64,000 nucleotides of DNA from contig JBOGKQ010000013.1 of NCBI GenBank assembly GCA_050747905.1, positions 3,529 to 67,528 on the forward strand, read 5' to 3'. Positions 34,954 through 53,444 of this stretch are shown here, one piece after another. Made by a program: the position numbers and the translations under genes. The notes beneath the pieces are model-generated. The model had not been told where the DNA came from. It saw only the letters and a program-made list of their open reading frames with translations, and did no database searches. Position 1 is the first letter of the stretch. Each line of letters begins with the position of its first letter. This stretch comes from Terriglobales bacterium. Lineage in GTDB: Bacteria; Acidobacteriota; Terriglobia; Terriglobales; SCQP01.

Positions 34954-35085
34954 CAAAAGCTGTAGTGATGAAACTGCGACATGACGCCGAAGAAATGCAG
35001 CATGGCATCGTGCTGGTCGGCTTCCATCGCATCCGCCCGCCGCTTGATCGCCGTTTCGCAGAGGATTTGCGCCTTGCTCGTTTTC
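34954..35085 (-). pseudogene. Truncated second ArdC N-terminal fragment
   Basis: About three quarters identical by eye to 34420-34550. Reads ...KAQILCETAIKRRADAMEADQHDAMLHFFGVMSQFHHYSF* and ends abruptly. Confidence 0.6.
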
Positions 35086-35184
35086 ACAGCGCCCCTTTCG
35101 GGGGCAAAGCCAAAGGCGCTCGCTTGCGACGCATCGAGATCGAGGTCCCGGTTGAGGTGGCGGGCTATACTGCCACTACCGCCA

Positions 35185-35841
35185 ATGAGCCTGATCAGGT
35201 CAAAGAAACGTGTTGCCGATCATGGAGAGGTTTTCACCCCTCCGTGGCTGGTCGAGGCGATGCTCGACCTCGTCAAGGGTGAGTCCGAGCGCATTGACTC
35301 GCGCTTCCTGGAGCCGGCGTGCGGTAGCGGAAACTTCCTCGTCCGGATTCTGCGACGCAAGCTCGCCGCCGTACAGATCAAGTACGGCAAGTCGGACTTC
35401 GAGCGCCGGAACTACGCCCTGCTCGCACTGATGTGCATCTACGGCATCGAGTTGTTGGGGGACAACGTTGCCGAATGCCGCGCGAACCTGCTCGAGATTT
35501 TCGCTGATTACCTGAACTTGGATGAACCGGGCGAACTATCCCGCGCAGCGTGCTGCGTACTGTCGCAGAATGTCGTGCATGGCGACGCGCTGGCGATGCG
35601 TGCCTCCGATGGCCAACCAATAACCTTTGCCGAGTGGGGCTACCTCGGCGCGGGCAAGTTTCAGCGGCGCGATTTCCGGCTCGACATCCTTACCGGTGCG
35701 TCCGCCTTCAGCGCGGAGGGCTCCCTCTTCGCCCACTTGGGCAAGCATGAAATCTTCACCCCGGATAAGACCTACCCGCCAATGACCGTGAGCGAGCTGG
35801 CCGCCGCCGCACACGGCGGCACGCCGAAGGAGGCCGCATGA
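35185..35841 (+). CDS. Methyltransferase-like SAM-binding protein lacking the NPPY catalytic motif
   Basis: GEVFTPPWLVEAMLDL (motif X), FLEPACGSGNFL (motif I), IYGIELL. No (D/N/S)PP(Y/F) anywhere in the 218 aa. ATGA overlap with the next gene. Confidence 0.6.
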   Translation: MSLIRSKKRVADHGEVFTPPWLVEAMLDLVKGESERIDSRFLEPACGSGNFLVRILRRKLAAVQIKYGKSDFERRNYALLALMCIYGIELLGDNVAECRANLLEIFADYLNLDEPGELSRAACCVLSQNVVHGDALAMRASDGQPITFAEWGYLGAGKFQRRDFRLDILTGASAFSAEGSLFAHLGKHEIFTPDKTYPPMTVSELAAAAHGGTPKEAA

Positions 35842-37445
35842 GCACGCAGGTTGGTTTTGCGCTGCGCGGCCGCAATCCGGATGTGCTTACGTGCATCGCG
35901 AACCTCTCAAATGACGAGGTGTTCACGCCCCCCGAGTTTGCGAACCGGATGCTGGACACGTTGACCGAGGCATGGGCCGCGAACCACAGTGGCGCGGATA
36001 TTTGGGCGGACGGGACGGCGACGTTCCTCGATCCGTGCACGAAATCAGGCGTCTTCCTGCGCGAGATCACCAGCCGCCTTAACAAGGGTTTGGCCGGTGA
36101 AATCCCGAACAGTCAGGAGCGCGTCGATCACATCCTGAACAAGCAGGTGTTCGGCATCGGGATCACGTATCTCACAAGCTTGCTGGCGCGTCGCAGCTTG
36201 TATTGCTCGAAACACGCCAACGGCGAGCATTCGATCACGAGGGGCTTCGAGAGCGACGCCGGCAACATTTGGTTCGAGCGTATCGAGCACGCGTGGGCGG
36301 GTGGCAAATGCAGGTACTGCGGGGCGAGCCAGAAGGCATTGGACCGCGGCGAGGCGCTCGAGACCCACGCCTACGGTTTTATTCACACCGGCGAAATCAA
36401 AGCTCGGATCGCCGAGCTGTTTGGAGGCGAAATGCAGTTCGACGTGATCATCGGCAACCCGCCGTACCAATTGGACGACGGCGGCTATGGCACAAGCGCG
36501 GCGCCGATTTACCAGTTGTTCGTGGAGAAGGCGCTCGAGCTCGATCCGCGCTACGCTGTGTTTGTGACGCCGTCGCGCTGGATGGCCGGGGGTAAGGGGC
36601 TCGACAAATACCGCGAGCGGATGCTCTCCGACAAGCGGATACGGCGTATCGTTGACTACCCGAAACTCTACGAGGGATTTCCGGGAGTGAAAATTCGCGG
36701 CGGCATTTCCTATTTTTTGTGGGACCGCGAACACCGCGGGCCGTGCATGGTGCAGACGATTTGGGACGGCCAGCCGACTGGCCCGGCGGTTGCGCGCCAC
36801 CTGGACGAGTTCGACGTCCTCGTTCGGCGCAACGAGGCTGTGCCAATTCTGAAAAAGATTAGGGCCAGAGGCGAGCCCACGCTCGATCGGAGCGTCTCCA
36901 GCCGTAAGCCGTTCGGATTCGCCACGAATTTCAGAGGGAAGCCGTCCGCGGCGGGTTTGAAGAGGCCCGTAAAGCTCTTCGAGAACCAGCGGGTCGGCTG
37001 GGTCGAACGAAAGGCTATTGCCGTTAACTCCGAATGGATTGACGACTGGAAGGTTCTCATGACGGCTGTCCAGGGGACGAGCGCGGCCGTCGAGACCAAG
37101 TTTTTGAGCAAGCCAGTCATCGCCGAGCCGGGAACAGCGTGTAGCGAGACGTATCTTGTCGCTGGCCATTTTGAGACCGAGAAAGAAGCGACCAACTTTG
37201 CGCGCTACCTGCGTGCTCGGCTTGTGCGCTTTCTAGTCTCACTGCGCAAGCCCACCCAGCACGCGACGCGCGACGTTTATTCTTTCGTCCCGCAGCTCCC
37301 GCTCGATCGTGTCTGGACAGACGCCAAGCTCTACAAGAGGTACGGGCTAACCAAGGCCGAGATCGCCTTCATCGAGTCGCAGGTCGCCGAACACGATGGC
37401 GAATTATTCGACGAGGTCGCTGTGGGCGAAACCGAGAATGAGTAG
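35838..37445 (+). CDS. N6-adenine DNA methyltransferase (Eco57I-methylase-domain type, gamma-class order)
   Basis: NDEVFTPPEFANRML, FLDPCTKSGVFL and FDVIIGNPPYQ (motif IV). Long C-terminal domain, presumably for target recognition. GAAGGAGG lies upstream. Confidence 0.85.
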   Translation: MSTQVGFALRGRNPDVLTCIANLSNDEVFTPPEFANRMLDTLTEAWAANHSGADIWADGTATFLDPCTKSGVFLREITSRLNKGLAGEIPNSQERVDHILNKQVFGIGITYLTSLLARRSLYCSKHANGEHSITRGFESDAGNIWFERIEHAWAGGKCRYCGASQKALDRGEALETHAYGFIHTGEIKARIAELFGGEMQFDVIIGNPPYQLDDGGYGTSAAPIYQLFVEKALELDPRYAVFVTPSRWMAGGKGLDKYRERMLSDKRIRRIVDYPKLYEGFPGVKIRGGISYFLWDREHRGPCMVQTIWDGQPTGPAVARHLDEFDVLVRRNEAVPILKKIRARGEPTLDRSVSSRKPFGFATNFRGKPSAAGLKRPVKLFENQRVGWVERKAIAVNSEWIDDWKVLMTAVQGTSAAVETKFLSKPVIAEPGTACSETYLVAGHFETEKEATNFARYLRARLVRFLVSLRKPTQHATRDVYSFVPQLPLDRVWTDAKLYKRYGLTKAEIAFIESQVAEHDGELFDEVAVGETENE

Positions 37446-39969
37446 ACCCATCGATGAGATCCTCGCACCGAAGCCGATTGCGCGGCCGAAGATCTACGCC
37501 TACTCGATTGCCGACGAGGCGCACGAGGGCCTCCTTAAAGTCGGACAAACCACCCGCGACGTGAAACTACGTGTGGCCGAACAGGTAAGGACCGCCGCCA
37601 TCAAGAACTACCGCATCGAGCTCGCCGAACCTGCCGAGCGCGACGTTGGGTCAGTCTTCACCGATCACGAGGTGCGTGCGGCTCTCGTAAGGAAGCGCTT
37701 CGAAAACGCCGACTTGGAATGGATGCGCTGCACCGTCGACGACGTGAAGACGGTTCTCGCCGAGCTTCGCGCCGGCCAAGAATTCACCGGGAGGCATTTT
37801 GCAACGTTCAAAATGCGCCGCGAGCAGACGGAGGCGGTGAAGAAAACCCACGCCTACTACCACTCGATCTGGAAGGAGGACATGCACGCCGTCCCGCGCT
37901 TCCTCTGGAACGCGAAGATGCGCTTCGGCAAGACTTTTACTGCCTATCAGCTCGCCAAGAAACTTGGCGCCAAGCGCGTGCTGGTCGTGACGTTCAAGCC
38001 CGCCGTCGAGGATTCCTGGCAGACCGAACTCGATGGCCATACGGACTTCGAAGGCTGGCAGTACCTCTCGAACTCCTCCGGCCGCGACCCGACGCAGGTC
38101 GAGCGTGGGAAGCCGGTCGTCTATTTCGGCTCGTTCCAGGACCTGCTCGGGCGCGATGCCGTCGGCAATATCAAGCCCAAGAATGAGTGGCTCCACGAGG
38201 TGAATTGGGACCTCGTGGTTTTCGATGAATACCATTTCGGAGCGTGGCGCGAGACCGCCAAGGAACTGTTCGAGGGCGAGGAGGATTCGAAGACCGAGGC
38301 CAAGCTCGAATACGACACCGGACTTGAGGAGGTGAATGAGGACCTTACTGTCCTGTCGGAGAAAGAGAGAGAGTTTCTCCCCATCACGACTAAGGCCTAT
38401 CTGTATCTCTCCGGGACGCCGTTCAAGGCGCTGGCCACGGGCGAATTCATCGAAGAGCAGATCTTCAACTGGACGTATACGGACGAGCAGCGCGCGAAAG
38501 AGGATTTCGCGAACGGGAACCCTGGAAAATGGAACCCTTACGGCGCGCTGCCGCAGATTCGACTGATGACGTACCAGATGCCGGATGAGCTGGTGGCGAC
38601 AGCGAGCGCCGGAGAGTTCGACGAGTTCGATCTCAACGAGTTCTTTGCCGCGACCGGCGCGGACAAAGGGGCACACTTTAAGCATCAGAGCGACGTGCAG
38701 AAGTGGTTGGACATCATCCGGGGCCAGTACGTGCCGAAGGCCGTCGAGAGCCTCAAGACCGGCACACGGCCGCCGTTCCCCTATTCGGACGTGCGCCTGC
38801 TGCCGTACCTGCAACACTCGTTCTGGTTCCTGCCCAATGTCGCCGCATGCCACGCCATGAAGAACCTGCTGGCCGAGAAGCACAACACTTTCTGGCGCGA
38901 ATACAAAGTAGTCGCTGCGGCCGGGGCTTCGGCGGGGATCGGACTTCAGGCACTGCCGCCGGTGCGGAAGGCGATTGCGAGCGGGTTCGACACCAAGACG
39001 ATCACGCTCTCGTGCGGCAAGCTCACCACCGGTGTCACTGTGCCGCAGTGGTCATCCATCCTGATGCTGCGCAACCTGAAATCGCCTGAGACCTATTTCC
39101 AGGCGGCGTTCCGCGTGCAGTCGCCGTGGTCCATCAAGAATCCGAATGGTGACGACCCGGGCGAGGAAGAGATTCTCAAGCCCGTGTGCTTCGTTTTTGA
39201 TTTCGCGCCCACGCGTGCGCTTCGTCAACTCTCCGAATACGGTATCCGGCTCTCGCCCAACGAATCGAATCCGGAAAACGCCATCAAAGATCTCGTGTCG
39301 TTCCTGCCAGTGCTGGCCTACGACGGCGCGAACATGACGCAGATTGATGCGGGCGGCATTCTCGACATCGCGATGGCGGGCACCTCGGCCACGCTGCTGG
39401 CGCGCAAATGGGAGAGCGCACTGTTGGTGAACGTGGACAACGAAACGCTGGGCCGCATCCTGAAAAATCCTGAAGCTATGGCAGCGGTGGAACGCATAGA
39501 GGGCTGGCGCGCGCTGGGTGACAACATCATTGAGACCATTATCAACAAAAGCGTAAAGGTCAAGGACCTCAAGAACAAGGCCAGAGACAAGGAGTTGACG
39601 AAGAAGGAGAAGAGCGTCCTCACCGAGGAGGAGAAGGAATACAAGTCCAAGCGCAAACTGGTGCAGGAGAAGCTGATCAAGTTCGCGGCACGCATCCCGG
39701 CGTTCATGTACTTGACGGACTTCCGCGAGAACACACTACAGGACGTCATCACCAAGTTGGAGCCGGATCTGTTCCTGGCTGTCACCGGTCTGACGGTCAA
39801 GGACTTCCATCTGCTCGTGCGCCTCAAGGTGTTTAACACCGAGCAAATGAACCAGGCGGTTTTCGCGTTCCGCCGCTATGAGGACGCTTCGCTGCGGTAC
39901 GCCGGCATCGAAAGCCACGAAGGGCTCTCCCATTACGGGCTGTACGATACCGTGGTGGGAAGGGAGTGA
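37438..39969 (+). CDS. GIY-YIG/T5orf172 nuclease domain fused to an SF2 (ResIII/SNF2-like) helicase; putative restriction subunit
   Basis: N-terminus KIYAYSIADEAHEGLLKVGQTTRDVKLRVAEQ is T5orf172-like. MRFGKTFTAYQLA is Walker A; VVFDEYHFGA is the DExH box. C-terminal helicase lobe. 8-nt overlap with the methyltransferase stop. Confidence 0.8.
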   Translation: MSRPIDEILAPKPIARPKIYAYSIADEAHEGLLKVGQTTRDVKLRVAEQVRTAAIKNYRIELAEPAERDVGSVFTDHEVRAALVRKRFENADLEWMRCTVDDVKTVLAELRAGQEFTGRHFATFKMRREQTEAVKKTHAYYHSIWKEDMHAVPRFLWNAKMRFGKTFTAYQLAKKLGAKRVLVVTFKPAVEDSWQTELDGHTDFEGWQYLSNSSGRDPTQVERGKPVVYFGSFQDLLGRDAVGNIKPKNEWLHEVNWDLVVFDEYHFGAWRETAKELFEGEEDSKTEAKLEYDTGLEEVNEDLTVLSEKEREFLPITTKAYLYLSGTPFKALATGEFIEEQIFNWTYTDEQRAKEDFANGNPGKWNPYGALPQIRLMTYQMPDELVATASAGEFDEFDLNEFFAATGADKGAHFKHQSDVQKWLDIIRGQYVPKAVESLKTGTRPPFPYSDVRLLPYLQHSFWFLPNVAACHAMKNLLAEKHNTFWREYKVVAAAGASAGIGLQALPPVRKAIASGFDTKTITLSCGKLTTGVTVPQWSSILMLRNLKSPETYFQAAFRVQSPWSIKNPNGDDPGEEEILKPVCFVFDFAPTRALRQLSEYGIRLSPNESNPENAIKDLVSFLPVLAYDGANMTQIDAGGILDIAMAGTSATLLARKWESALLVNVDNETLGRILKNPEAMAAVERIEGWRALGDNIIETIINKSVKVKDLKNKARDKELTKKEKSVLTEEEKEYKSKRKLVQEKLIKFAARIPAFMYLTDFRENTLQDVITKLEPDLFLAVTGLTVKDFHLLVRLKVFNTEQMNQAVFAFRRYEDASLRYAGIESHEGLSHYGLYDTVVGRE

Positions 39970-40704: not shown

Positions 40705-41319
40705 ATGGGCTGTTTTCTCTGCTCTCCCGATCCGGCGTTGGTCTACGCAGCGAACGCCGAGGCTTTCGCGCTGTGCGGACTGGGGCCCCTCGTGCGCGGT
40801 TATAGCATCGTTGCGACGCGAGCCCACGTCCGATCCTGCGCCGACTCTGCCACGGAATCCCCGTCGCTCTTAGAATTCACCGAGCAGATCAGGGGATTTT
40901 TGGGCTCGATCTACGGGTCCTGCTTGGTCACGGAGCACGGGCGCCTGCCGGTCTGCGCCAGGTCAGAGGGCTCGGGGGGACACTGCTTCCACGCACATTT
41001 CCTGCTATTTCCCCGAGCCCCCGACATTGTCAATGCCTGCCGGCCCTATTTTGGACTGGCAGAGGCCACCAGCGGCCTCGGGCCCACAATGGCCCTTGCC
41101 TGCGGACGACAAGAATATTTTCTTGTGGCACCGACGCCCACCGAGTGCTGGATCATGACTCGGCCACTCCTCCTATGCCGCCAGTTCGCACGCCGGATGG
41201 TCGCCGATCGGCTTGGCATCCCCGAGGAGGCGGACTGGGCGATGCACCCCAAAGCCAACGCCGCAGAGTCGGAGGCCGAACACCTCCGGCGCCGCGTGCT
41301 AACGTGGGCGACGCCGTGA
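40705..41319 (+). CDS. HIT-like (histidine-triad fold) protein
   Basis: N-terminal CFLC. GLGPLVRGYSIVATRAHV parallels D..P...GH.LV.PK.HV. GGHCFHAHFLLFPR parallels the HxHxHxx-PR triad. Confidence 0.6.
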   Translation: MGCFLCSPDPALVYAANAEAFALCGLGPLVRGYSIVATRAHVRSCADSATESPSLLEFTEQIRGFLGSIYGSCLVTEHGRLPVCARSEGSGGHCFHAHFLLFPRAPDIVNACRPYFGLAEATSGLGPTMALACGRQEYFLVAPTPTECWIMTRPLLLCRQFARRMVADRLGIPEEADWAMHPKANAAESEAEHLRRRVLTWATP

Positions 41320-42530
41320 ACCAGAACAGGGTGGCCGTTCTGCTTGAAAAGCTTGCGGAGAAATTCGACACCGCCATCCAACAGGAAGGAGGCGCGACGT
41401 CCCAGTGGGGATGGGGGCAGTTCCTGGACGATTCAAAAGAACGGAGGCAGATCGGGCCCTACGGCACGTCAGCTGGCATGATCGTGAGGGCCCTTGCCCA
41501 GGGCGTAGGCGCAGCACCTGACGCGAGGCCTTCGGCGATCATAACCAGCTGGTGGCGCGAGTGGAAATCCGGGAGCGGGAGCGGGCGCAAGGTGTTCTGC
41601 CAGAACCTTCGGCTCGCATTCTTCCTGCTCGCGCTCCGCCTGTCTTCAATTGATGCTGCCCTCTCAGCCGAGGCCGAAGAGGAACTCCTAAAGCGAAACC
41701 TGGGCGACGACATGTGGGGGGATTACTGGGAATCCGATACGGACCACGACATGACCCCAAGCCATCTCGTTACATCTACGGTTGTGCTCGCATTTACGCT
41801 ATGCCAGCCAAGCCCCGAAGGGCAGACGGTATCGCGGCTGAGAAGATCCGTTGTTCGGCTCGAGCAGCGCTTGCTCGGCGACCCGCAGATGCCGGCCCTC
41901 CAAGCCTCATTCGCGGCCGCAGCAATAATGGCCCTTGGACCCCAAAACGCAAGAGCCATCAGAAAGCAAATCGCGCGATTTGCCATGTCGCGCGATTTTT
42001 CGCTCGCCGACCTCGGGGTGTACTTTTACGAGTACAAGTGTGACGGCAAGGCCGGCACGGATTACTTCATAGCGCCCCCGGCCATTGTCCTGGCGACCGG
42101 GGCATTCAGCTCGTCTTCCCCGATCCTTCTCCGGCAATTTGGCGAACAAGTTGCCGCACGCCTGGCGAAGAGCTTAGAAAAAAGCGACTACGGCTTCAAG
42201 CCGGACGCCGAGCAGAGAGTGTCAACGAAGAATCAGGCTTGGGCCGCGCTCCTGCTTAAGGCCTCGTTATCGCCAAACGCCAATCCGACCAGCCTCGCCG
42301 GCATGGTGTGGTACGGACTACTGCGGGAGCGTCCGGGTAACTGGTGGACCGAAATTGTCTTCCCAGTGGCTTTGATCGCGGCCAGCGCCACCGAGGCGAC
42401 ATTCATAGGTAAGCTCGGCATCGGTTGGCTCTTCGCGGCCGCGACCCTTGGCCAGGCGGCCGTCTTCGGTATTGCAATTCGCCACCTCCTCCCGTACTGG
42501 GACCGACTGTTCCCCACGGCACGCTCATGA
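41316..42530 (+). CDS. Hypothetical helical-repeat protein with C-terminal TM helices
   Basis: GTG start inside a GTGA overlap with the upstream stop. SQWGWGQF...GPYGTSAGMIVRAL and MWGDYW...HLVTSTVVLAF resemble alpha/alpha-toroid (prenyltransferase/terpene-cyclase-like) repeats. The C-terminus WWTEIVFPVALIAASA...IGWLFAAATLGQAAVFGIAI is hydrophobic. Confidence 0.55.
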   Translation: MNQNRVAVLLEKLAEKFDTAIQQEGGATSQWGWGQFLDDSKERRQIGPYGTSAGMIVRALAQGVGAAPDARPSAIITSWWREWKSGSGSGRKVFCQNLRLAFFLLALRLSSIDAALSAEAEEELLKRNLGDDMWGDYWESDTDHDMTPSHLVTSTVVLAFTLCQPSPEGQTVSRLRRSVVRLEQRLLGDPQMPALQASFAAAAIMALGPQNARAIRKQIARFAMSRDFSLADLGVYFYEYKCDGKAGTDYFIAPPAIVLATGAFSSSSPILLRQFGEQVAARLAKSLEKSDYGFKPDAEQRVSTKNQAWAALLLKASLSPNANPTSLAGMVWYGLLRERPGNWWTEIVFPVALIAASATEATFIGKLGIGWLFAAATLGQAAVFGIAIRHLLPYWDRLFPTARS

Positions 42531-43795
42531 CCATTTTCGACCCGATCTACGGACCCTGCGATCTGGCGCCGAGGCTCGCCGAGCTGGCGCTTGCCCCGGA
42601 GGTTCGGCGCCTCACCCAAATTCGACTGCTAAATACATCCAGCCCAACTCTTGCCACCCTGGGGGAGCTGCGGCGATACTCCCACACTCTGGGCGTCCTC
42701 AGGCTCGCTCTGATCAACGGGCAACCCGGATACTCCCCGGAGGAAAGGGCCGCCTTTGCCGCGTCCGTTTTGATACACGACATTGGGACCCCGCCCTTCG
42801 GTCACCTGATGGAATACCACCTCCGCGAGCAGCTTAGCTGGAGCCATGAGGAGGTCGTTGCCCGCATGCTTTGGGGTCTGCACACCGACGAGAATCTTTC
42901 CCACCAGATATTCGCCGGTATGACTCTGGAGGTGCGACGCATACTGAAAAGGCGGAGGATTTCTCTCGACATTGTTCGGAAGATACTTACGAAAGACCAC
43001 CCGCTGTCCCGGTTGCTGTTCGGGAGCATCGATCTCGACAATCTCGACAACGTCGCGAGAATGGCCTGGGCCGTCGGCATCACCTGTGTGGACTCAACCC
43101 TGGCCCTTGCGGCCGCTCTCTCGGTCTCCAGAGACGGTCGGCTGCTGCTCCCTGAATCGTGCCGACCTGCGGTGGAGCGTTGGGCAGGAACGCGGCGCAG
43201 CGTCTACGAAATTCTTCTTTTCGATCCCGCCACGGTAGCGAGTCAAGCGGTGCTCTCAAAGGCCATTGGCATCGCCATGACGGCAGGTGACATCGGCGGC
43301 GCGGACTGGTGCATGTACGACGAGACGCTTCTGGAGAAGCTCCGCCAATCACCGGGCACCCGCAAGCTCGTTACGTCTTTCCTCGGGCGCCTGCCAGGCC
43401 CTATATACGCGTTGAATTTGCGGGGGACTCTGGCGAGCTATGGCCTCGGGAACCGAGCGGCCGCGGTCGGGGCCGCCCTTTCGTCCCTGGGAGCACATCG
43501 GAGCGGCGACTGCATCGCGTATGCATTTGTGGACAAGGGCGCGACTGCCAAGGCCCTTGAATTTGCGGATCCTGCGTCGGGCAGAACGTGGTGCTTTGGC
43601 GAAACCTCCGAGAGCGTGGTATTCTCCGTGTTCTCATACGGTCGCCCCGAGAGAAAGGAGGCTACTGCGGCCGCCTCGCGGCTACTCCGCACCCTCGGCG
43701 CGCGGCCAGATGACGTGATCCGCGTGCAAATTGGTCGTGACCGTCCGGCATATAGCTCTGGCAATGACAAACAGCTTACTCTCCAGGCTCTCTAA
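42527..43795 (+). CDS. HD-domain phosphohydrolase, SAMHD1/dGTPase-like
   Basis: MTIFDPIYGPCDL, RYSHTLGVLRLA, VLIHDIGTPPFGHLMEY and GSIDLDNLDNVARMA follow the H...HD...D order of dNTP triphosphohydrolases. ATGA overlap upstream. Confidence 0.8.
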   Translation: MTIFDPIYGPCDLAPRLAELALAPEVRRLTQIRLLNTSSPTLATLGELRRYSHTLGVLRLALINGQPGYSPEERAAFAASVLIHDIGTPPFGHLMEYHLREQLSWSHEEVVARMLWGLHTDENLSHQIFAGMTLEVRRILKRRRISLDIVRKILTKDHPLSRLLFGSIDLDNLDNVARMAWAVGITCVDSTLALAAALSVSRDGRLLLPESCRPAVERWAGTRRSVYEILLFDPATVASQAVLSKAIGIAMTAGDIGGADWCMYDETLLEKLRQSPGTRKLVTSFLGRLPGPIYALNLRGTLASYGLGNRAAAVGAALSSLGAHRSGDCIAYAFVDKGATAKALEFADPASGRTWCFGETSESVVFSVFSYGRPERKEATAAASRLLRTLGARPDDVIRVQIGRDRPAYSSGNDKQLTLQAL

Positions 43796-44918
43796 AATCG
43801 ATTGGGACTTCGCCGGCTACATGAGCGAGTCGTCGTTTTCGGCGGTCCATTTCCACCCTAGCCGCTTCGCCTCCCAAATTCCAGCGGCTCTGATCGGGCT
43901 TATGAGCAGACCCGGAGACCTCGTTATGGATCCGTTCTGCGGCTCTGGCACCACCCTCGTCGAAGCGCAGCGCCTGGGTAGAAGGTCAATCGGGATAGAA
44001 CTCAACCCGGTTGCCGCGATGGTTAGCCGCGCTAAGACCCAGTGCAAATCCGCGAAGCGAATCGGTGCCGTCATCAGAGACCTCAAGGAGCAGGCGGAGG
44101 CAACAATTCGGGCAGGCCACATCTTCGTCCGCTCGGGGCCAGCGACCACTCCGGCTACGGTGCAGGCAAGCAAGTGGTACGGCCCCAAGGTCGCGCGGGA
44201 CTTGGGCTTGCTCTGGGCAGCGAATCTGAAGCTTACTGGCGTCCACCGGCTGCTCGCCGACACGGCCTTCTCCGCCATCCTTTTGACGGTCTGCAGGGAG
44301 ACGCGACACTGGGGCTACGTCTGTGACAACACGACCCCAAAGGGCCAGCGCAATGCAGACGTGCTAAGAGAATACTGTGCCCTGCTTGAGCGCCTTGCCC
44401 GGGCATATCGCGACCGGGACGAAGAGATGGAGGTCGCCGGGCACACGCTCCCAGCCGCCACGGTACTGTCAGGCGACGCATTGCAGGTGATGGAAGGCAT
44501 AACTAAGTCGACCGTAGATTTGGTCGTGACATCGCCGCCGTACTTCGGCGTCTGCGATTACATAAAGGCGCAGCGGCTCACGATGGAGTGGCAGGGCACC
44601 AAAATTGAGCCGCTCCGAGCCGAGGAGATTGGGGCTAGAAGCAAGCGCCACAGGAAGACCGCCGCTTGCGAATACATCGAAGCAATCAGTCGGGCTTTCC
44701 AATCCATGGCCCGTTGCGTGCGGCCTGGCGGGGGTCTCGCGATCGTGCTGGGCCAGTCCGACACCCGCGATGAGGTACTGAATGATCTCAGGGCGGCAAT
44801 CTCAGCGGCCAAGATGTCAATCGAGCAAGAGCTAAACCGCACGGTATCGACCCAGCGGCGACTCGCACCCAGCTTGCGGGGCGAACATCTGTTTATCCTG
44901 TCGGCGAGGCAACGATGA
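43764..44918 (+). CDS. SAM-dependent methyltransferase (DPFCGSGTT motif I followed by SPPY motif IV)
   Basis: IDWDFAG...VHFHPSRFASQIPAALIGLMSRPGDLVMDPFCGSGTTLVEAQRLGRRSIGIELNP, then VDLVVTSPPYFG. The start is uncertain (43764 or 43821). Confidence 0.75.
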   Translation: MTNSLLSRLSKIDWDFAGYMSESSFSAVHFHPSRFASQIPAALIGLMSRPGDLVMDPFCGSGTTLVEAQRLGRRSIGIELNPVAAMVSRAKTQCKSAKRIGAVIRDLKEQAEATIRAGHIFVRSGPATTPATVQASKWYGPKVARDLGLLWAANLKLTGVHRLLADTAFSAILLTVCRETRHWGYVCDNTTPKGQRNADVLREYCALLERLARAYRDRDEEMEVAGHTLPAATVLSGDALQVMEGITKSTVDLVVTSPPYFGVCDYIKAQRLTMEWQGTKIEPLRAEEIGARSKRHRKTAACEYIEAISRAFQSMARCVRPGGGLAIVLGQSDTRDEVLNDLRAAISAAKMSIEQELNRTVSTQRRLAPSLRGEHLFILSARQR

Positions 44919-45943
44919 CCCTTCGAGATTTGGGCGAGAGGCGCATTCTGAGGGAGGTCCTGCCAGAGTTCTGCCCGCTTGCGGGCGACGATTGCACCTT
45001 CCTAGCCCGCGACCTCTCCGGCATTGTGATCACCACGGACCCAGCCCCAGAGCCAGCCGCCAAGCTAATCGGCCGAGATGCGGACCCGTATTGGCTCGGC
45101 TGGCTGCATGTCACAATCAACGCTTCAGATATAGCCGCGGCCGGGGCGGCGCCCCTAGCCTTCGTTAGCGCGCTCGAGTTGCCGCCTGACTATGAGTTGC
45201 CCGATCTGAAGAGGCTCCTCGCAGGCACCAGGGAGTGCTGCGCGTTGCACGGGTTCACCTACGCCGGCGGGAACCTGAAAGAGGCCACCCGGGTTTCGGC
45301 CGTGGGGACTGCAATCGGCGCCGCAGAACCCCGGCGTGTGTTGGGCCGGGGCGGGGCACGGGCGGGCGACGTCGTCGTTAGCGTCGGCGAGTGCGGGATC
45401 TTCTGGCGGGACGCGCTGGCTGCGCATTCGGGCAAGGAAGTTGCGGACAAGGCACGCTCCCCGTTGTTCGCCCCTCGCGCCCAAACAGGGCCGATGCGGG
45501 CGCTTGCGGCGCAGGGTCTCATTACCGCAGCGATCGACAACAGCGACGGGCTACTCCCGTCACTTGAGCAGCTCGCTATAAGCAGCCGTGTCGACATCAC
45601 CGTCAATCTGGAGAACCTCGTCCCCCCTCCTGACGCTCCTGCCGGCCTCGATCCCGCTCGGCTTTGGCTAGGCTGGGGTGACTGGAACGTGGTCGCCACG
45701 ATGCGGGTCGGCGACCTGGCGAGCGCTAAACGGCTGGTTGCGCACGAGGGCGTGCCGGTTACGCCGATCGGCTACTGCTCGCCGGGCACCGGTAGCGTAG
45801 TCCTAGAGAGGGCAGGAAGGCGCTCTATCGCGCCCCGCCTTGAGTCCGAACGGTTCGCGGCAGATTCGTGGTTCGGAACCGGCGTAGACGGCTACATTAA
45901 ACTGATAAGGACGGTCGAATTACCCTCGCCCCCGACCCTGTAA
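44915..45943 (+). CDS. PurM/ThiL-fold ATP-utilising enzyme (AIR-synthase-related protein)
   Basis: LGERRILREVL...GDDCTFL...VITTDPAPEP...GWLHVTINASDIAAAGAAP...YAGGNL...GARAGDVVV follows the ThiL/PurM pattern. ATGA overlap upstream. Confidence 0.8.
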   Translation: MTLRDLGERRILREVLPEFCPLAGDDCTFLARDLSGIVITTDPAPEPAAKLIGRDADPYWLGWLHVTINASDIAAAGAAPLAFVSALELPPDYELPDLKRLLAGTRECCALHGFTYAGGNLKEATRVSAVGTAIGAAEPRRVLGRGGARAGDVVVSVGECGIFWRDALAAHSGKEVADKARSPLFAPRAQTGPMRALAAQGLITAAIDNSDGLLPSLEQLAISSRVDITVNLENLVPPPDAPAGLDPARLWLGWGDWNVVATMRVGDLASAKRLVAHEGVPVTPIGYCSPGTGSVVLERAGRRSIAPRLESERFAADSWFGTGVDGYIKLIRTVELPSPPTL

Positions 45944-49565: not shown

Positions 49566-52500
49566 TTACGGCATGTAGATTATAGATTGCACGGCATAGT
49601 TGCCGTTGCTGTCCTCGATCGAGATCTGCCAGATGTAGGTCCCTCCGCTGGTCAGGCTTGCCACGGAAGGCGTATTGGAGCTGTCTCCGGTCGGATCGGT
49701 CCCCCAGACGATTTGCGTGATCGAGCTGGAGAAGTAGCTGCTGTTGGAGTTCTGGCTCGGGATCTGCCAGATCGTGTTGTTGTTCGAATCCACAATCTGG
49801 AACGAATAGGTGTAATTGCTGGCATCGGTCGGATCGGTCCAGGTGAAGGTCGGCGTGGTGCCGCCGGTCGCCGACAGGTTGGTCGGGAACTCGGTGATCA
49901 GGGCCGTAACCTTGGTGGTGAGCGTGTCCGATGTGCCGTCACTGTAGTTGATCTGGAAGCTGTAGGTGTCGCCGACGACCGGAGCGATGGGGATGTTGAG
50001 GTTGTACTCGAACCCCCCGCCGCAATAGTTGCCGCAAACGCTGACGTCCACGGGAACCACGTTCGGGCCGGACTCCAAATACACCGACACCGGCAGTTTG
50101 ATATTTCCCGTCACCGTGAATTGAAGGCTGTAGTTTTGCCCGATCTGGCTGCCGCTCTGGTTCTCGGACTGATAGTTCTGGGTGGCCACCGCGGCGGTGG
50201 CGTTGGCGCTGGCCAGCGTCAGGTTCAAGGTGGTGGCTCCAGTAATCGTCTGGCTCGCCTTCACGCCGCTGCCGCCGACGTTGGTGATATCGCCGGCGTC
50301 CACCACGCCGTCTTTGTTGTTGTCCAGAATGCCGACCGCGGAGCAGTTGGAGCCACTGGGCACTTGGACTGTGTAGGCTTGCGGGCTGACCGGAGAGGCG
50401 ATGTAATCGCCGTAGAATTGGCCCGCTTTCTGATCGTAGCAGCCGGCGTAGAGAGGGCCGGTAGCGGTTCCGGTGAAGGTGACCGCGCCGGATACCGTGT
50501 CGGCGCCGGTGGGCGCGCCGACCGTCACCGCGCTGGAGACCGCGGAATAGGAACTGGTCGAGCTTCCGGCGGTGCCGGAGGCGCGGAAATAATAGGTGCC
50601 GTTGGCGAGGCCGTTCACCAGCCAGACGGTGCTGCTATCGGGGCCGGTCGCGGGGAAGGTCTTGCTGCCGGTGACGGTGCCGAACGAGGAGTCCGTGCTC
50701 CACTGCAGGGTGTAGGAGGTTGCCAGCTCGAGGCCGTTGTTGTCTACCTGGGGATTGTAAATCACCAGCGCGCCGGTGTTGACGCCGGCTAGCGTTGCCA
50801 GTTCGGGGCCGAGGGTGAGGGTTACCGCCGCGGCAGGGGTCATGGTGACGGACGCGCCGGTTACGTCCGCGTTGGAGACCGTAATGCCGGTGGTGCTGCC
50901 GCTCGGGTTGGACGCGTTCGGGGCGCCGTAGCCCAAGTTGTCCATGCGCGCCTGCAGGGTATAGGTGCCGGGCGCCACGCCGCGGATGGTGAAGGCGCCC
51001 GTCGAGGAAATGCTGGTGCCGGGGACGGTGTAACTGGGGCAGCTGTTGTTGCTCAGGGTGAGGTAAATCCGGCCCGTGTCCGAGCCGCTGTAGCTGACCG
51101 TGCCGGAGACGGTGTAGCCCAGGCCGACGCTGAAGTTCTCGCTGGTGAGGTTGGCGGTGGCGATGGTGACCGCCTGGGTGGCGGGCGAGAAGGTCGTAGT
51201 TGCGGAACCGGGCGCGCTGTAGGTTGGCGTCAGCGTATAGGCGCCGGTGGCGAGGCCGGTGATGGTGAAGTTTCCGCTGCCGTCGGTGGTGGCCGTCCCC
51301 ACCGTTTTGTTGTTCGAGTCGGTGGCGGTGATGGTGACGCCGGAGACGGAATTGCTGCCGGTGCAGCTGGCGAACGTTTGCACCGACCCGCTAGCCGAAT
51401 AGCTCGTGGTGACGGCGATGGTGTAGGTCTTCGGCCCGACGGTGGCGCCGTTGCTATCGGTCACCGACGCGGTGAAGGTGACGGTGCCGGTCGCGGTGGG
51501 CGTTCCGGTGACGTTCAGGGTGCTGGTGCCGGTGTTGGAGACGCTGAGGCCCAAGCCGTTGGTGAGGGCGACGGCGGCGCCGGTGGTGGCGAGGGCGGCG
51601 CCGTTGACCGTCCAGGTGTAGCCCGGTACGCCGCCGGCGGCGTTGATGGCGCCGGTGTATGCGCCGCTGGTGGAGGCGGCGGGCAGCGAAGCCGGGTTCG
51701 GCGCCGGCAGCGCCAGCGCGGCATAGGCCGCGAGGTTCAGGCTGGCGGTGCCGGCCGCGCCGCTGGAATCCTTCACCTGGAAGGTGACGCTGCCGCTGCC
51801 GGTGGCCGTGGGCGTGCCCGAGAGCACACCCGCGCTCGATAGCGTCAGGCCGATCGTGGTCAGCGTGCTCTGGCCCGCAGTGACCGACCAGGCGTAGGGG
51901 GCGCCGCTGCCGCCGCTGGCCGCCAGCGTGGTTGTATATGCGGTGCCGACGTAGGCGGGCGGGAGGGTGGCAGTGGTGACTGAGGGCGCATTGCTGACGG
52001 TGAGCGAGAGCGCCTGGGCGGCCGAGGTGACCCCGCCGATGGTCACCGTGACGGAAAAGTTGAACGGCCCGCCGGTCGCGGTGGGCGTGCCGCTGATGAT
52101 GCCGGTCGCCGGAGCCAGGGTGAACGGCGCGGGCAGGGTGCCGCTGGACACCGCCCACGTCGCCGCGCCGGTCTGGCCATCGGCATTCGCAGTAAGCGTG
52201 GTGGTGTAGAGGACTCCGACCGAAGCCGTCGGAATCGAGGTCGTGGTCACGTCCGGCGCGCCGGCGCCGAGGGTGAGCGTCAGCGACGCCTGCTGGGTTT
52301 GTTTCGGCGTGCCCGCGTCGCTGACGGTGAAGGCGATGGCGCCGGTATTGGTCGCCGTGGGCGTGCCCGAGATGGCGCCGGTGGCCGCGTTCAGGGTCAG
52401 ACCGGCCGGCAACGTGCCCGACGACCAGACATAGGGGGTCACGCCGCCGCTGGCCGCCAGCGTGGCCGAATAGGCGACGCCGGCGGTGCCTGCGGGCAGC

Positions 52501-53444
52501 GTCGTGGTGGTGAGCGCCAGGGTCGGGATCACGGTCAGGCTGAGCGCCGCGGTCGCCTTGGTTTGCTGGAAGGCCCCGGCGCCGGAGTCGGTTGCGGTGA
52601 CCACGAGGTTGGCGATGGCGCCGGAGGCGGTGGGCGTGCCGCCGATGACGCCGCTGGAGGCGCCGATGCTGAGGCCGGCGGGCAGCCCGGTGGCGCTCCA
52701 GGTGACGGCGCCGGTGCCGCCGGTGCTGGTGAACGCCGGCGAGGTGTAGGCGGTGCCCTGCACGGCGTTCGCCAGCGCCGGCGCGGTCACCACGAGCGGG
52801 GCGGGATTGATGGTGAGGCTCAAGCTTCCGGAGGTGGCGGCGACCGGCGTTGCCGCCGAGGCGTCGGTGACGGTGACGGTGAAGGTGTAGTTGCCGGCCG
52901 TGGTGGGCGTGCCTGAGATGGCGCCGGCGGCGCTGAGCGCCAGCCCGGCGGGCAGGGTCGAGCCGCTGGGCAGGCTCCAGGCCAGCGTGCCCGAGCCGCC
53001 GCTGGCGGCGAGGGTGGCCGAATAGACCGTGCCCGCCGTGCCGGCGCTGAGGGCGCCGCTGCTGGTGACCACCGGGGGCGGATTCACCACGATGGCATGG
53101 GCCGCCATCGCGCCGGTGGAGGCGTTCGAGGTGGCGGTCACGGTGACGTTGGTGGCCGCAGTGACTGTGGCCGGCGCGTTATAGGTGGCGGCACTGATGC
53201 TGGTGCCGCTGAGGGTGCCGCCGCCGCTGACGCTCCAGGTCACGCCGGCATTGGTGGAATCATTGGCGACCGCGGCGGTGAGATTGACCGACTGGCCCCC
53301 GTCAATGGACTGGGACGCGCCCGGCACGATGGCGACGGTGATGGCAGGCGGGGTGTTCGAGCCGCCGCTGCTGCCGCAGCCGACCGCGAATCCAAGGGAA
53401 AGTACCAGGCAACCGGTGAGAACGCGTCCAGTCAAATAACGCAC
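49566..53444 (-). CDS. Giant surface lipoprotein with tandem Ig-like (putative Ig / He_PIG-type) and CarboxypepD_reg-like domains
   Basis: The lipobox LSLGFAVGC follows the signal peptide. Repeated units of the form GTAGVAYSATLAASGG..PY.WS..SG.LPAGL.L...TG.ISGTPT. 1292 aa. Confidence 0.8.
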   Translation of the reverse strand: MRYLTGRVLTGCLVLSLGFAVGCGSSGGSNTPPAITVAIVPGASQSIDGGQSVNLTAAVANDSTNAGVTWSVSGGGTLSGTSISAATYNAPATVTAATNVTVTATSNASTGAMAAHAIVVNPPPVVTSSGALSAGTAGTVYSATLAASGGSGTLAWSLPSGSTLPAGLALSAAGAISGTPTTAGNYTFTVTVTDASAATPVAATSGSLSLTINPAPLVVTAPALANAVQGTAYTSPAFTSTGGTGAVTWSATGLPAGLSIGASSGVIGGTPTASGAIANLVVTATDSGAGAFQQTKATAALSLTVIPTLALTTTTLPAGTAGVAYSATLAASGGVTPYVWSSGTLPAGLTLNAATGAISGTPTATNTGAIAFTVSDAGTPKQTQQASLTLTLGAGAPDVTTTSIPTASVGVLYTTTLTANADGQTGAATWAVSSGTLPAPFTLAPATGIISGTPTATGGPFNFSVTVTIGGVTSAAQALSLTVSNAPSVTTATLPPAYVGTAYTTTLAASGGSGAPYAWSVTAGQSTLTTIGLTLSSAGVLSGTPTATGSGSVTFQVKDSSGAAGTASLNLAAYAALALPAPNPASLPAASTSGAYTGAINAAGGVPGYTWTVNGAALATTGAAVALTNGLGLSVSNTGTSTLNVTGTPTATGTVTFTASVTDSNGATVGPKTYTIAVTTSYSASGSVQTFASCTGSNSVSGVTITATDSNNKTVGTATTDGSGNFTITGLATGAYTLTPTYSAPGSATTTFSPATQAVTIATANLTSENFSVGLGYTVSGTVSYSGSDTGRIYLTLSNNSCPSYTVPGTSISSTGAFTIRGVAPGTYTLQARMDNLGYGAPNASNPSGSTTGITVSNADVTGASVTMTPAAAVTLTLGPELATLAGVNTGALVIYNPQVDNNGLELATSYTLQWSTDSSFGTVTGSKTFPATGPDSSTVWLVNGLANGTYYFRASGTAGSSTSSYSAVSSAVTVGAPTGADTVSGAVTFTGTATGPLYAGCYDQKAGQFYGDYIASPVSPQAYTVQVPSGSNCSAVGILDNNKDGVVDAGDITNVGGSGVKASQTITGATTLNLTLASANATAAVATQNYQSENQSGSQIGQNYSLQFTVTGNIKLPVSVYLESGPNVVPVDVSVCGNYCGGGFEYNLNIPIAPVVGDTYSFQINYSDGTSDTLTTKVTALITEFPTNLSATGGTTPTFTWTDPTDASNYTYSFQIVDSNNNTIWQIPSQNSNSSYFSSSITQIVWGTDPTGDSSNTPSVASLTSGGTYIWQISIEDSNGNYAVQSIIYMP

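Follow-up and report, generated by a model that had tools for sequence, protein, structure and literature searches.

Positions 40705 to 45943 of the window (the whole 64,000-nucleotide stretch of Terriglobales DNA analyzed here) carry five genes that form a rare, horizontally mobile operon. At a rough probability of 0.4, our preferred reading is that this cassette is a mobile operon of a modular, undescribed family of conflict systems, most likely anti-phage, that acts by the mechanism proposed below. The anti-phage reading is the most likely one because relatives exist in which the toroid protein carries a TIR immune effector. Taken by itself, a defence function has odds slightly better than even, and the signal-to-effector logic is tentative and rather doubtful. 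The core of the family is a putative ATP-dependent phosphotransferase (ThiL-like, or PPDK_N in one variant), a CwfJ-type HIT protein, and a putative toroid/membrane killer protein.

Operon architecture and genomic context

The cassette and its upstream neighbors, the latter as matched by Pfam, are as follows:
34981..39969, + strand, R-M-like block, upstream neighbor of the cassette
34981-35841 and 35838-37445, + strand, split N6_Mtase/MmeI plus Eco57I-type methylase
37396-39969, + strand, ResIII helicase with T5orf172 domain, 857 aa
40222..40698, + strand, short ORF directly upstream of gene 1, no Pfam match
40705..41319, + strand, gene 1, 204 aa, two-lobed HIT-superfamily protein of the CwfJ C-terminal type
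41316..42530, + strand, gene 2, GTG start, 404 aa, (alpha/alpha)6 toroid plus two-helix membrane hairpin
42527..43795, + strand, gene 3, 422 aa, HD phosphohydrolase of the EF1143/SAMHD1 fold family
43764..44918, + strand, gene 4, 384 aa, SAM-dependent amino-methyltransferase of the N6_N4_Mtase family
44915..45943, + strand, gene 5, 342 aa, ThiL-like PurM superfamily member

Each of the five ORFs in the window overlaps the next. GTGA at 41316 joins genes 1 and 2, ATGA at 42527 joins genes 2 and 3, ATGA at 44915 joins genes 4 and 5, and the ATG of gene 4 at 43764 lies 32 nt before the end of the gene 3 stop codon (TAA, 43793-43795). These same-strand start/stop overlaps had been described in the first-pass annotation and were all recovered on re-reading. 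Of the two gene 4 starts that it offered, 43764 is supported by the homologues, which can be aligned from residue 1 of that start, and 43821 is not; according to locus coordinates, genes 3 and 4 also overlap by 19 to 41 nt in other loci. The idea of a single unit holds in the sense of a co-inherited operon, as the identical five-gene order is found elsewhere. The fold calls made for all five proteins are likewise supported, and the motifs quoted for them are all present and invariant in the respective family alignments. In the Pfam search, genes 3, 4, and 5 matched HD (weakly), N6_N4_Mtase, and AIRS/AIRS_C, respectively, and genes 1 and 2 matched no family.

The short ORF upstream of gene 1 shows 26.7% identity (E = 2e-4, tblastn) to an annotated IS110 family transposase and may be a transposase remnant; the earlier label of an IS110 relic is weakly supported by this match. 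The other contextual claims, namely, the Eco57I-type methylase with the ResIII/T5orf172 helicase, ArdC, the RepB primase, and the T4SS fragments, were confirmed by Pfam.

Recurrence and mobility of the cassette

The five genes recur with their order kept in at least nine other loci at 30 to 57% protein identity, and a five-gene unit of this kind is far beyond chance. The carriers belong to different phyla and include an Acidobacteriota MAG, Xanthomonas bonasiae, and soil metagenomes, with the full order in L001, L002, L004/5, L006, L011, L012, L013, and L015 and a partial order in L009, L010, L016/17, and L030. The cassette is nevertheless rare, being carried by about 3 of 36,145 genera and by a single genome among the 401 sampled from its own phylum, with the same proportion (1/401) around L001. 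Most of the recurrent loci adjoin integrases, transposases, ArdC, toxin-antitoxin, or R-M genes, and the flanks also include Prim-Pol/AAA_25, SSB, RelE/HTH, DUF433/DUF5615 pairs, HNH_2 with DUF2326, and Eco57I-type enzymes. One copy splits an ATP synthase operon, and in a 14-contig plasmid lineage genes 1 to 4 persist but gene 5 has disappeared next to a scrap of IS66. The neighborhood check proposed earlier thus found the block conserved across phyla and in a mobile-element or defence-island setting in most loci. Around L001 and L002, neither defence nor mobile genes occur, which counts against a defence function.

Protein components

Gene 1 carries the motif C94-x-H96-x-H98-x-L100 and lacks the third histidine, and its AF2 model (pLDDT 93.5) is a two-lobed HIT fold, in agreement with the original call of a HIT-like protein with a degenerate histidine triad. 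Its best full-length structural match is the C-terminal CwfJ_C_1 plus CwfJ_C_2 module of the eukaryotic proteins Cwf19, CWF19L1, and CWF19L2 (Drn1); in VIA-align comparisons, the Cwf19/CWF19L chains 8ro1_L1, 6id0_U, 9l5r_U, and 3jb9_c gave Z scores of 14.5 to 18.9 and rmsd values of 2.5 to 3.2 Å across 179 to 193 of the 204 residues, whereas generic HIT proteins reached a Z of about 12 across about 100 to 125 residues. Unlike the Cwf19 proteins, with which it shares only 11 to 14% sequence identity, gene 1 is bacterial and stand-alone, has no spliceosome context, and combines an invariant H-x-H with a Cys cluster, which suggests an active enzyme. The residues invariant in the family alignment are CFLC (N-terminal), EHGR, C84, C94, and H96-A-H98. 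The family search gave 241 matches; CwfJ_C_2, HIT, and CwfJ_C_1 are found below the Pfam thresholds in family members, and a Lactococcus relative scores 26 bits for CwfJ_C_1 against a threshold of 21.

The AF2 model of gene 2 (pLDDT 92.1) places a toroid at residues 1 to 330 and a C-terminal membrane hairpin at about 343 to 398, with hydropathy maxima at 347 to 365 and 369 to 388, as expected from the helical repeats and two C-terminal TM helices noticed at first. VIA-align gave Z scores of about 18 to 21 against AprG, sugar epimerases, GH76, complement TED domains, and both squalene-hopene and class II terpene cyclases; the Atlas neighbors are prenyltransferase/SQHop_cyclase-like. The family comprises 327 clusters at 50% identity, and GWGQF, GPYGT, and WG are invariant in its alignment. 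Acidic or metal-binding motifs from which catalysis or ligand binding by the toroid could be established are not conserved in it.

Gene 3 scores 26 bits for Pfam HD, and its profile matched 2q14 (1e-19), 2o6i, 2hek, and SAMHD1 in the PDB. It shares the HD fold and the RxxH...HD...D metal site with SAMHD1, EF1143, and bacterial dGTPases, including anti-phage dGTPases, through R49R50xSH53, H84D85, and D169xD171, of which H53, H84, D85, and D171 are invariant in the family alignment. Its substrate pocket is diverged from that of the solved SAMHD1/EF1143-type relatives: HDIGTPPFGH stands in place of HDxGHxPFSH and DLDNLDNVARM in place of DxDxxDYxxRD, so that the His becomes Thr and DY..RD becomes DN..RM. 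The earlier label of a SAMHD1-type hydrolase is therefore right for the fold family and not for the conserved histidine and the DY..RD motif. NCBIfam dGTPase models do not call gene 3, falling far under their cut-offs, and the anti-phage dGTPase models give 12 to 13 bits against cut-offs of 383 to 400. Gene 3 also differs from dGTPases in always overlapping a methyltransferase gene.

Gene 4 has a permuted order, with the SAM motif DPFCGSGT followed by an insert of ~170 aa containing the invariant VCRETRHWGYVCDN and then by TSPPYFGV; DPFxGSGT and TSPPYFGV are invariant in the family alignment. It matched PF01555 with 72 bits (residues 26 to 82) and TTHA0409, M.PvuII, and CcrM in the PDB, and its identification as an SPPY methyltransferase is upheld.

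Gene 5 matched both AIRS and AIRS_C and has the ThiL fold. Every aspartate that binds Mg in ThiL is retained, as is the catalytic serine motif DxSDGL, and GDD, TTD, and NxSD are also kept in an alignment with solved ThiL, so the original ThiL/PurM-fold call is sound. GDDC, TDP, NASD, GGN, and DNSDG are invariant in its own family. It differs from ThiL in scoring 137.5 bits for TIGR01379 against a cut-off of 184 and in its own C-terminal motifs, GWGDWNV and PRLESERFAxDSWF. A true thiL (254.5 bits) co-exists elsewhere in the source genome, which indicates that gene 5 is something other than the housekeeping thiL.

Variant operons

Three variants lack the HD and methyltransferase genes. In L029, the product P0203 fuses a PF10137 CAP12-PCTIR_TIR domain (E = 1.7e-29) to a gene 2-type toroid without the membrane hairpin. 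The flanking genes encode a ThiL-like protein, with 31% full-length identity to gene 5, a CwfJ_C_1/DcpS_C/HIT protein, and a NUDIX protein that takes the place of the HD protein and methyltransferase. Elsewhere, PF10137 domains occur as fusions with sensors such as cNMP-binding, TPR, and NUDIX domains, and the toroid occupies the sensor-domain position of TIR effectors. The fusion is represented by one 4.9-kb metagenomic contig, which counts against a defence function, and no second fusion was found among the 120 TIR relatives listed. L007 encodes a toroid-TM protein, PPDK_N, a HIT protein, and a 196-aa TM protein, and a second module in L012 encodes a TM protein, a ThiL-like protein, and a CwfJ-like HIT protein. 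The constant trio in the variants is thus a predicted ThiL-like (or PPDK-like) kinase, a CwfJ-type HIT protein, and a toroid/membrane protein, and the HD and methyltransferase genes are a separable pair, or add-on, which in Rhizobium etli pA accompanies a PNP-like protein. The first-pass annotation had cast the methyltransferase as a self-marking arm and the HD and membrane proteins as effectors; with the HD and methyltransferase genes missing from these variants, that model is unsupported as stated.

Comparison with known systems

PADLOC HMMs gave only a generic Type II MTase match and a faint dGTPase signal in the cassette, with no match to genes 1, 2, and 5, and searches with NCBIfam models and of the literature found no named system like it, in line with the earlier claim. 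The Pycsar/CBASS effectors (PycTM/PycTIR, Cap12) join a signal-binding domain to a TM or TIR killing domain, and the toroid with a TM hairpin (gene 2) or TIR (P0203) mirrors the TM/TIR alternation of the Pycsar effectors. Like Pycsar/CBASS operons, the cassette family encodes nucleotide-handling enzymes. However, both cyclase and CD-NTase are absent from it, a ThiL-like or PPDK-like kinase would make the signal instead, and its presumed sensor is an (alpha/alpha)6 toroid rather than a cNMP-binding, SAVED, or STING domain; signalling by the cassette is inferred. A DNA-type amino-methyltransferase is shared with Type II R-M, BREX, DISARM, MADS, and Hma, and the cassette adjoins other R-M genes, but it has no recognized restriction nuclease, PglZ, helicase, ATPase, or other signature protein of these systems.

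Alternative explanations

A modification-dependent, R-M-like defence is unlikely but is the strongest alternative. Here, marking of host DNA or nucleotides would fall to the methyltransferase, possibly joined by the kinase and HIT protein to produce a bulkier adduct, while unmarked invaders would be attacked by the membrane protein and by the HD protein, the latter acting as a nuclease or dNTPase. Gene 4 belongs over its full length to the DNA N6/N4 methylase family and scores up to 94 bits with PADLOC MTase_II models, genes 3 and 4 overlap by 19 to 41 nt in every locus, and relatives of both genes occur together in R. etli pA at 29 to 31% identity, beside a PNP-like protein; an HD neighbor beside this methylase type is enriched, at 18 of 300 versus fewer than 3 at random places. 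However, Pfam and PADLOC recognize no restriction nuclease fold in the cassette, and gene 3 belongs to the nucleotide-hydrolase EF1143/SAMHD1 fold family rather than to Cas3-type nucleases. The trio without a methyltransferase in L029, L007, and L012 and the plasmid lineage lacking gene 5 also argue against this explanation.

A pathway that makes or salvages a modified nucleoside or nucleotide, for example an antimetabolite or a compound for export, and that travels as cargo of mobile elements with no role in immunity is improbable. The methyltransferase and kinase would tailor a nucleotide, the HD and HIT proteins would trim phosphates or NMP, and the toroid would handle or export the product. 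All four enzyme families act on nucleotide-like substrates, and the defence-free surroundings of L001 and L002 fit. The distant gene 1 relatives in Lactococcus pUC06C and Streptomyces pSMg1-2 neighbor cysteine desulfurases, a dCTP-deaminase-like protein, and an EamA-type exporter, which look like small-molecule biosynthesis and count against defence. A toroid-fused TIR effector, however, has no place in a biosynthetic pathway, and the patchy single-genome distribution and integrase, TA, and R-M neighbors are typical of defence cargo. To our knowledge, PF01555 methylases act on DNA and not on free nucleotides.

Still less probable is end processing, or capping, in which the HD protein would trim a 5' triphosphate, the ThiL-like enzyme would convert the 5' monophosphate to a diphosphate, the HIT protein would transfer NMP to give a cap-like NpppN, and the amino-methyltransferase would methylate the cap base, marking or protecting RNA or DNA ends. 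ThiL chemistry is the phosphorylation of a phosphomonoester, and gene 5 keeps the ThiL catalytic residues. As in HIT enzymes of the transferase type (GalT/Apa2 branch), the third His is missing from gene 1; RNA-associated Cwf19 proteins match it best in structure, its relatives match DcpS_C, and the SPPY region of gene 4 has a sub-threshold Pfam match to the RNA cap guanine-N2 methyltransferase family. This scheme is purely a reaction-class analogy, however; RNA-binding and ligase components are absent, the toroid-TM/TIR protein is left without a role, and gene 4 is far nearer to DNA methylases than to cap methylases.

Housekeeping thiamine or purine salvage lying in the island by chance, named at the outset as a possible refutation and suggested by the ThiL resemblance of gene 5 (137 bits), is contradicted by its score under the family cut-off, the separate true thiL, the absence of thiamine or purine genes nearby, and the 1/401 occurrence, and its probability is negligible.

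Proposed mechanism of the putative conflict system

The preferred reading, a mobile and probably anti-phage conflict system, has to accommodate a DNA-type methyltransferase, which would be more at home in a modification-based system than in signalling, and no phage-sensing component was identified in the cassette. We know of no precedent for a ThiL-like kinase as an immune signal synthase, which counts against defence signalling. The catalytic residues are kept throughout (ThiL Mg-binding Asp and Ser, HIT HxH, HD metal ligands, and SAM/SPPY motifs), and we propose gene 5 as the candidate ATP-dependent phosphotransferase that makes the system's product and gene 2 as the candidate sensor-effector. 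Upon infection, the ThiL-like enzyme, perhaps partnered by the HIT enzyme (a nucleotidyl-transferase or hydrolase that would add or remove NMP), would make a diphosphate by phosphorylating a small molecule that already bears a phosphate and is probably nucleotide-like. The (alpha/alpha)6 toroid of gene 2 would bind the diphosphate product, as proposed because this fold class often binds diphosphate ligands. Binding would activate the attached effector, either the two-helix hairpin of gene 2 or the Cap12/Pycsar-type TIR NADase in L029, and arrest the infected cell. Self-DNA marking, foreign-DNA sensing, and nucleotide methylation are candidate roles for the HD and methyltransferase add-on. The hydrolases (the gene 3 HD protein, the L029 NUDIX protein, and possibly the HIT protein) would provide the precursor or remove the signal, which would keep uninfected cells safe.

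Operon layout and conservation

Five plus-strand ORFs of 204, 404, 422, 384, and 342 codons lie at positions 40705-45943 of the window and encode, in order, a CwfJ-type HIT protein (gene 1), a toroid protein with a membrane hairpin (gene 2), an HD hydrolase (gene 3), an amino-methyltransferase (gene 4), and a ThiL-like kinase (gene 5). Their organization as one operon, described in the first-pass annotation, is confirmed: the overlapping junctions GTGA at 41316, ATGA at 42527, and ATGA at 44915 are all present, and the ATG at 43764 sits 32 nt before the stop codon of gene 3, which gives the 32-nt overlap with gene 4 that had been suggested. The protein that starts at 43764 is matched by gene-4 homologs from its first residue on, and the long overlap is both real and conserved, since one of 19 to 41 nt recurs in all other loci examined. 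Pfam recognizes HD (weakly), N6_N4_Mtase, and AIRS/AIRS_C domains in the cassette proteins, with no match for genes 1 and 2. Promoter and terminator scans upstream of gene 1 and after gene 5 yielded nothing usable.

In gene neighborhood searches, the five-gene block recurs as one conserved unit. Searches with genes 3, 2, and 1 recovered the identical order, with protein identities of 30 to 57%, from an Acidobacteriota MAG (locus L001), Xanthomonas bonasiae (L002), and metagenome contigs from soil or other environments (L004/5, L006, L011, L012, L013, and L015), and partial copies occur at loci L009, L010, and L030. In a plasmid-like lineage with ParA/ParB/RepC (14 contigs), genes 1 to 4 are retained next to an IS66 fragment, and gene 5 is missing. 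A large protein collection contains at least 241 members of the gene-1 family, and the gene-2 family comprises 327 clusters at 50% identity.

Variant operons and modularity

The variant operons are the most informative result. The cassette is a composite of a kinase-HIT-toroid/membrane core and a separable HD-methyltransferase pair, because the core and the pair occur apart in the operons at L029 and L007, in the second module at L012, and on a Rhizobium etli plasmid. In a census of gene-4-type methylases, an HD neighbor was found in 18 of 300 carriers, versus fewer than 3 at random places. Three of the variant operons are as follows.

L029:1070-4943, variant operon on a single 4.9-kb metagenome contig: NUDIX gene, ThiL-like gene, TIR-toroid fusion gene (protein P0203), and CwfJ_C_1/DcpS_C/HIT gene, in this order
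L007:6727-10851, variant operon: toroid-TM protein, PPDK_N-type ATP-dependent phosphotransferase (600 aa), HIT protein, and 196-aa membrane protein
L018:4242-9525, HD-methyltransferase pair on plasmid pA of Rhizobium etli CIAT 652: HD protein 31% identical to gene 3 and methyltransferase 29% identical to gene 4

The ThiL-like gene of L029 shows 31% identity to gene 5 from end to end. P0203 (500 aa) combines an N-terminal Cap12/Pycsar-type TIR domain (PF10137; E value, 1.7e-29) with a gene-2-type toroid at residues 170 to 497 that lacks the membrane hairpin, a fusion known from this one short contig alone; its N terminus shows no relation to gene 1 by hhalign. Elsewhere, PF10137 TIR domains are fused to sensor domains. 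By analogy, the exchange of a TM hairpin for a TIR domain on the toroid may mirror the killing-domain swaps of Pycsar and CBASS effectors, whose architecture would be matched here by toroid plus TM or TIR plus toroid, with a putative ligand-sensing part. At L007, the PPDK_N-type phosphotransferase takes the place of the ThiL-like gene, there is neither an HD gene nor a methyltransferase gene, and a PADLOC HMM search recognized none of the variant proteins. At L012, a second, diverged module lies directly beside the full cassette on the opposite strand; its three genes encode a membrane protein of 175 aa, a ThiL-like protein (with a frameshift), and a CwfJ-like HIT protein. The R. etli pair, whose methyltransferase is of the same permuted type as gene 4, has a PNP_UDP_1 protein of 516 aa in place of the kinase-HIT-toroid trio, and a further protein of 295 aa there bears a GDAAG FAD-like motif. 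These four proteins are all annotated as hypothetical, and hhalign found no relation of the PNP-like and 295-aa proteins to gene 1 or gene 2.

The HIT, toroid, and kinase proteins

The predicted structure of gene 1 (pLDDT, 93.5) consists of a HIT fold, bearing out its earlier assignment as HIT-like, and a second lobe. The model matches Fhit, Hint, Aprataxin, and Apa2 with a Foldseek probability of 1.00, and ordinary HIT proteins align with the first lobe only (VIA Z score, 11 to 12). The C-terminal modules of the spliceosomal proteins Cwf19, CWF19L1, and CWF19L2 match clearly better than any others and share the two-lobed structure over the whole length (Z score, 14.5 to 18.9; root mean square deviation, 2.5 to 3.2 Å; 179 to 193 residues aligned). 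The Pfam CwfJ families PF04677 and PF04676 do not match gene 1 itself; subthreshold CwfJ_C_2 matches occur in 6 of 51 family members, and the relatives in Lactococcus and at L029 reach 26 and 23 bits against CwfJ_C_1 (threshold, 21 bits). Conserved in the family are CFLC, EHGR, C84, C94, and H96-x-H98. The H-x-H-x-H-x-x triad is thus incomplete, reading C94-x-H96-x-H98-x-L100, and alignment with the L007 HIT protein (HAHAH) identifies the leucine as the replacement of the third histidine. The absence of this histidine is typical of the transferase/phosphorylase members (GalT/Apa2 branch) and not of simple hydrolases.

Small operons on the plasmids Lactococcus lactis pUC06C (L023:5751-8458) and Streptomyces sp. 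Mg1 pSMg1-2 (L024:6363-9659) combine distant gene-1 relatives (28 to 31% identical; CwfJ_C_1/HIT) with a class-V aminotransferase/cysteine desulfurase. The Lactococcus operon additionally encodes an EamA-like membrane protein, and the Streptomyces operon encodes a dCTP-deaminase-like protein and an uncharacterized 313-aa protein. These operons hint at sulfur chemistry on nucleotides.

Gene 2 is predicted to form an (α/α)6 toroid (pLDDT, 92.1) followed at its C-terminal side by two hydrophobic helices (residues about 343 to 398). The toroid aligns with SHC, drimenyl-PP synthase, MstE, GH76, epimerases, and complement TED domains at Z scores of about 16 to 21 by VIA-align, on which the fold assignment rests, the Foldseek matches being weak (E value, ≥1.5e-3); its protein-atlas neighbors are prenyltransferase- or squalene-cyclase-like. 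The (α/α)6 toroid is a fold common to many unrelated functions. Although gene 2 shares it with terpene cyclases and prenyltransferases, the near-invariant columns in an alignment of 88 sequences (W33, G34, Q35, F36, Q45, G47, Y49, G50, T51, W134, L182, and Q307) include no catalytic acidic (DxDD-type), Zn-binding, or Cys/His motif.

Gene 5 contains the AIRS and AIRS_C domains of the PurM superfamily and shares the fold of ThiL. GDD25-26, D42, D72, and D208-N-S-D211-G align with solved ThiL and are invariant in the family; all Mg/ATP-binding aspartates and the DxSDGL serine motif of ThiL are intact, but the protein scores below the ThiL equivalog cutoff (TIGR01379; 137.5 versus 184.15 bits). 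A true thiL gene (254.5 bits) is present elsewhere in the same genome, on contig C2, and the identification of gene 5 as the housekeeping ThiL is rejected.

The HD-methyltransferase pair

Gene 3 is a member of the EF1143/SAMHD1/2q14 family. It shares the metal site of antiphage dGTPases and SAMHD1 (ligands H53, H84, D85, and D171) but carries HDIGT and DLDNLDNVARM where 2q14, 2o6i, and 2hek have the second histidine of HDxGH and the DY..RD motif. Its scores are far below the dGTPase cutoffs (NF041026, 13.3 versus 400 bits; TIGR01353, 21.6 versus 152 bits), and the PADLOC dGTPase model matches it with 17 bits over 26 residues. Gene 4 is a permuted N6/N4 amino-methyltransferase by its matches to PF01555 (72 bits) and the PADLOC MTase_II models (up to 94 bits). 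The SAM-binding motif DPFxGSGT and the (D/N/S)PP(Y/F)-type motif TSPPYFGV are invariant in the family, marking it as a putative DNA methyltransferase, and a conserved 170-aa insert bears VCRETRHWGYVCDN. Complex predictions for genes 3 and 4 with family alignments gave 0.00, 0.51, and 0.00 in separate runs and carry no weight for or against an interaction.

Sequences distantly related to the middle and motif-IV part of gene 4 are unusually common in Polyangia, where they occur in 144 of 281 genera, all in the lowest similarity band. An HD neighbor is rare there, so these relatives represent a different, possibly lineage-fixed methylase.

Rarity, mobility, and genomic surroundings

The cassette is rare, with about three convincing carriers among 36,145 genera. 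In the window's own phylum, 1 of 401 genomes carries it, as does 1 of 401 genomes sampled around the Acidobacteriota MAG; a single contig of one 4.8-Mb genome accounts for both hits, which suggests that the organism of the window is likewise an acidobacterium. A tblastn search of phage genomes with genes 1 and 5 gave no match. In the window, the cassette comes after a split Eco57I-type methylase and a ResIII helicase (857 aa) with an N-terminal T5orf172 domain, and ArdC, RepB primase, and VirB11- and TraG-like gene fragments are located nearby. The ORF immediately upstream, previously taken as an IS110 relic abutting the operon, is no more than faintly IS110-like.

Window 34981-37445, split Eco57I/MmeI-type methylase in two overlapping ORFs: 286-aa N6_Mtase/MmeI_Mtase part and 535-aa Eco57I part
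L016:12199-15248, four-gene form of the cassette on a ParAB/RepC plasmid-like contig: adjoins an HNH_2 + DUF2326 pair and a 1611-aa Eco57I-type enzyme

The split methylase may be a type IIG/IIL enzyme with a frameshift, or else its two-gene form is genuine. At other loci, the genes next to the cassette include integrases, Prim-Pol/AAA_25 replication genes, Tn5/IS66/DDE transposases, ArdC, and SSB, along with RelE/HTH and DUF433/DUF5615 pairs, the HNH_2 + DUF2326 pair, and the 1611-aa Eco57I-type enzyme. L016, where a DUF433/DUF5615 pair lies upstream of the four-gene form, is a compact defense island. At L012 (9001-16583), atp genes flank the full cassette, which is inserted within an F-type ATP synthase operon. 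The neighbors at L001 and L002 are uninformative.

The window also contains, on the minus strand at 49566-53444, a 1292-aa ORF that combines five He_PIG Ig-like repeats with CarboxypepD_reg/SpaA-type domains and around which the G+C content climbs to 0.70 to 0.74; it probably encodes a large surface adhesin-like protein.

Comparison with known systems and interpretation

The earlier claim that the system is undescribed stands, as PADLOC HMMs, NCBIfam, and literature searches matched no named system. Apart from a generic Type II methylase and the 26-residue dGTPase-like stretch, the PADLOC HMMs recognized nothing in the cassette; PglZ/BrxC, DrmA/B, DndACDE, SspABCD, DpdA-C, and MAD1-8 gave no match in the PADLOC search apart from the generic MTase_II. 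NCBIfam returned no equivalog, the MAD2 model scoring 14.9 versus 720 bits. Signature proteins of R-M restriction, BREX, DISARM, Dnd/Ssp, Dpd, MADS, CBASS, and Pycsar are absent from the cassette, and neither it nor the L007 variant encodes a CD-NTase or pyrimidine cyclase (Pfam, PADLOC, and NCBIfam). Literature searches on ThiL/PurM/AIR synthase, HIT, CwfJ, and HD plus methyltransferase in a defense context found nothing relevant; the HIT protein in the PADLOC paper is ThsC of Thoeris II, a context unrelated to the cassette.

The cassette is most economically read as a modular conflict system with a toroid effector, and we assign a probability of roughly 0.55 to 0.6 to its being a defense or conflict system. 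On this reading, the toroid protein is the putative effector, and its toroid domain would have the regulatory or ligand-binding role. A molecule that controls this protein would be made or edited by the ThiL-like (or PPDK-like) enzyme together with the HIT enzyme, and the HD or NUDIX proteins may act as supply or clearing hydrolases. The first-pass mechanism is only partly supported. That the cassette acts by a small-molecule signal is a tentative suggestion. More tentative still is a new class of abortive infection, in which the ThiL-like kinase and the CwfJ-type HIT enzyme would make a novel nucleotide-like phosphorylated second messenger, the toroid would read it and fire the membrane or TIR effector, and the HD-methyltransferase pair would be a new sensing or self-marking module. 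To our knowledge, none of the four non-methyltransferase families in the cassette had been linked to immunity.

Modification plus restriction, as proposed in the first-pass annotation with the methyltransferase as the self-marking arm, is unlikely; like Type II R-M, the cassette has a DNA-type methyltransferase, but no restriction endonuclease, PD-(D/E)XK, HNH, GIY-YIG, or PLD domain was detected in genes 1, 2, 3, and 5 by Pfam, PADLOC, or NCBIfam. A nucleotide-metabolite pathway, to which the distant gene-1 relatives beside cysteine desulfurases, a DCD-like protein, and an EamA exporter point, is rather improbable, and an end-capping pathway is very improbable. RNA-repair (Pnkp/Hen1-like) and thiamine-antivitamin readings were dropped as pure analogies without a supporting component.

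If the cassette is a defense system, it would add to prokaryotic immunity classes not yet seen there, namely a ThiL/PurM-type kinase, a CwfJ-type HIT enzyme, an α/α toroid effector scaffold, and an HD-methyltransferase pair, and probably a new signaling or modification chemistry as well. Its modular variants provide natural controls: TM versus TIR on the toroid, ThiL-like versus PPDK-like kinase, and HD plus methyltransferase versus NUDIX. If it is a nucleotide-tailoring pathway instead of an immune system, its product would still be a new modified nucleotide. The gene-1 family is a compact bacterial homolog of the poorly understood C-terminal module of eukaryotic Cwf19/Drn1, and its biochemistry could therefore inform spliceosome and lariat biology; if the abortive-infection reading is true, the bacterial HIT enzyme would offer the first enzymatic indication of what the Cwf19/Drn1 CwfJ domain does.
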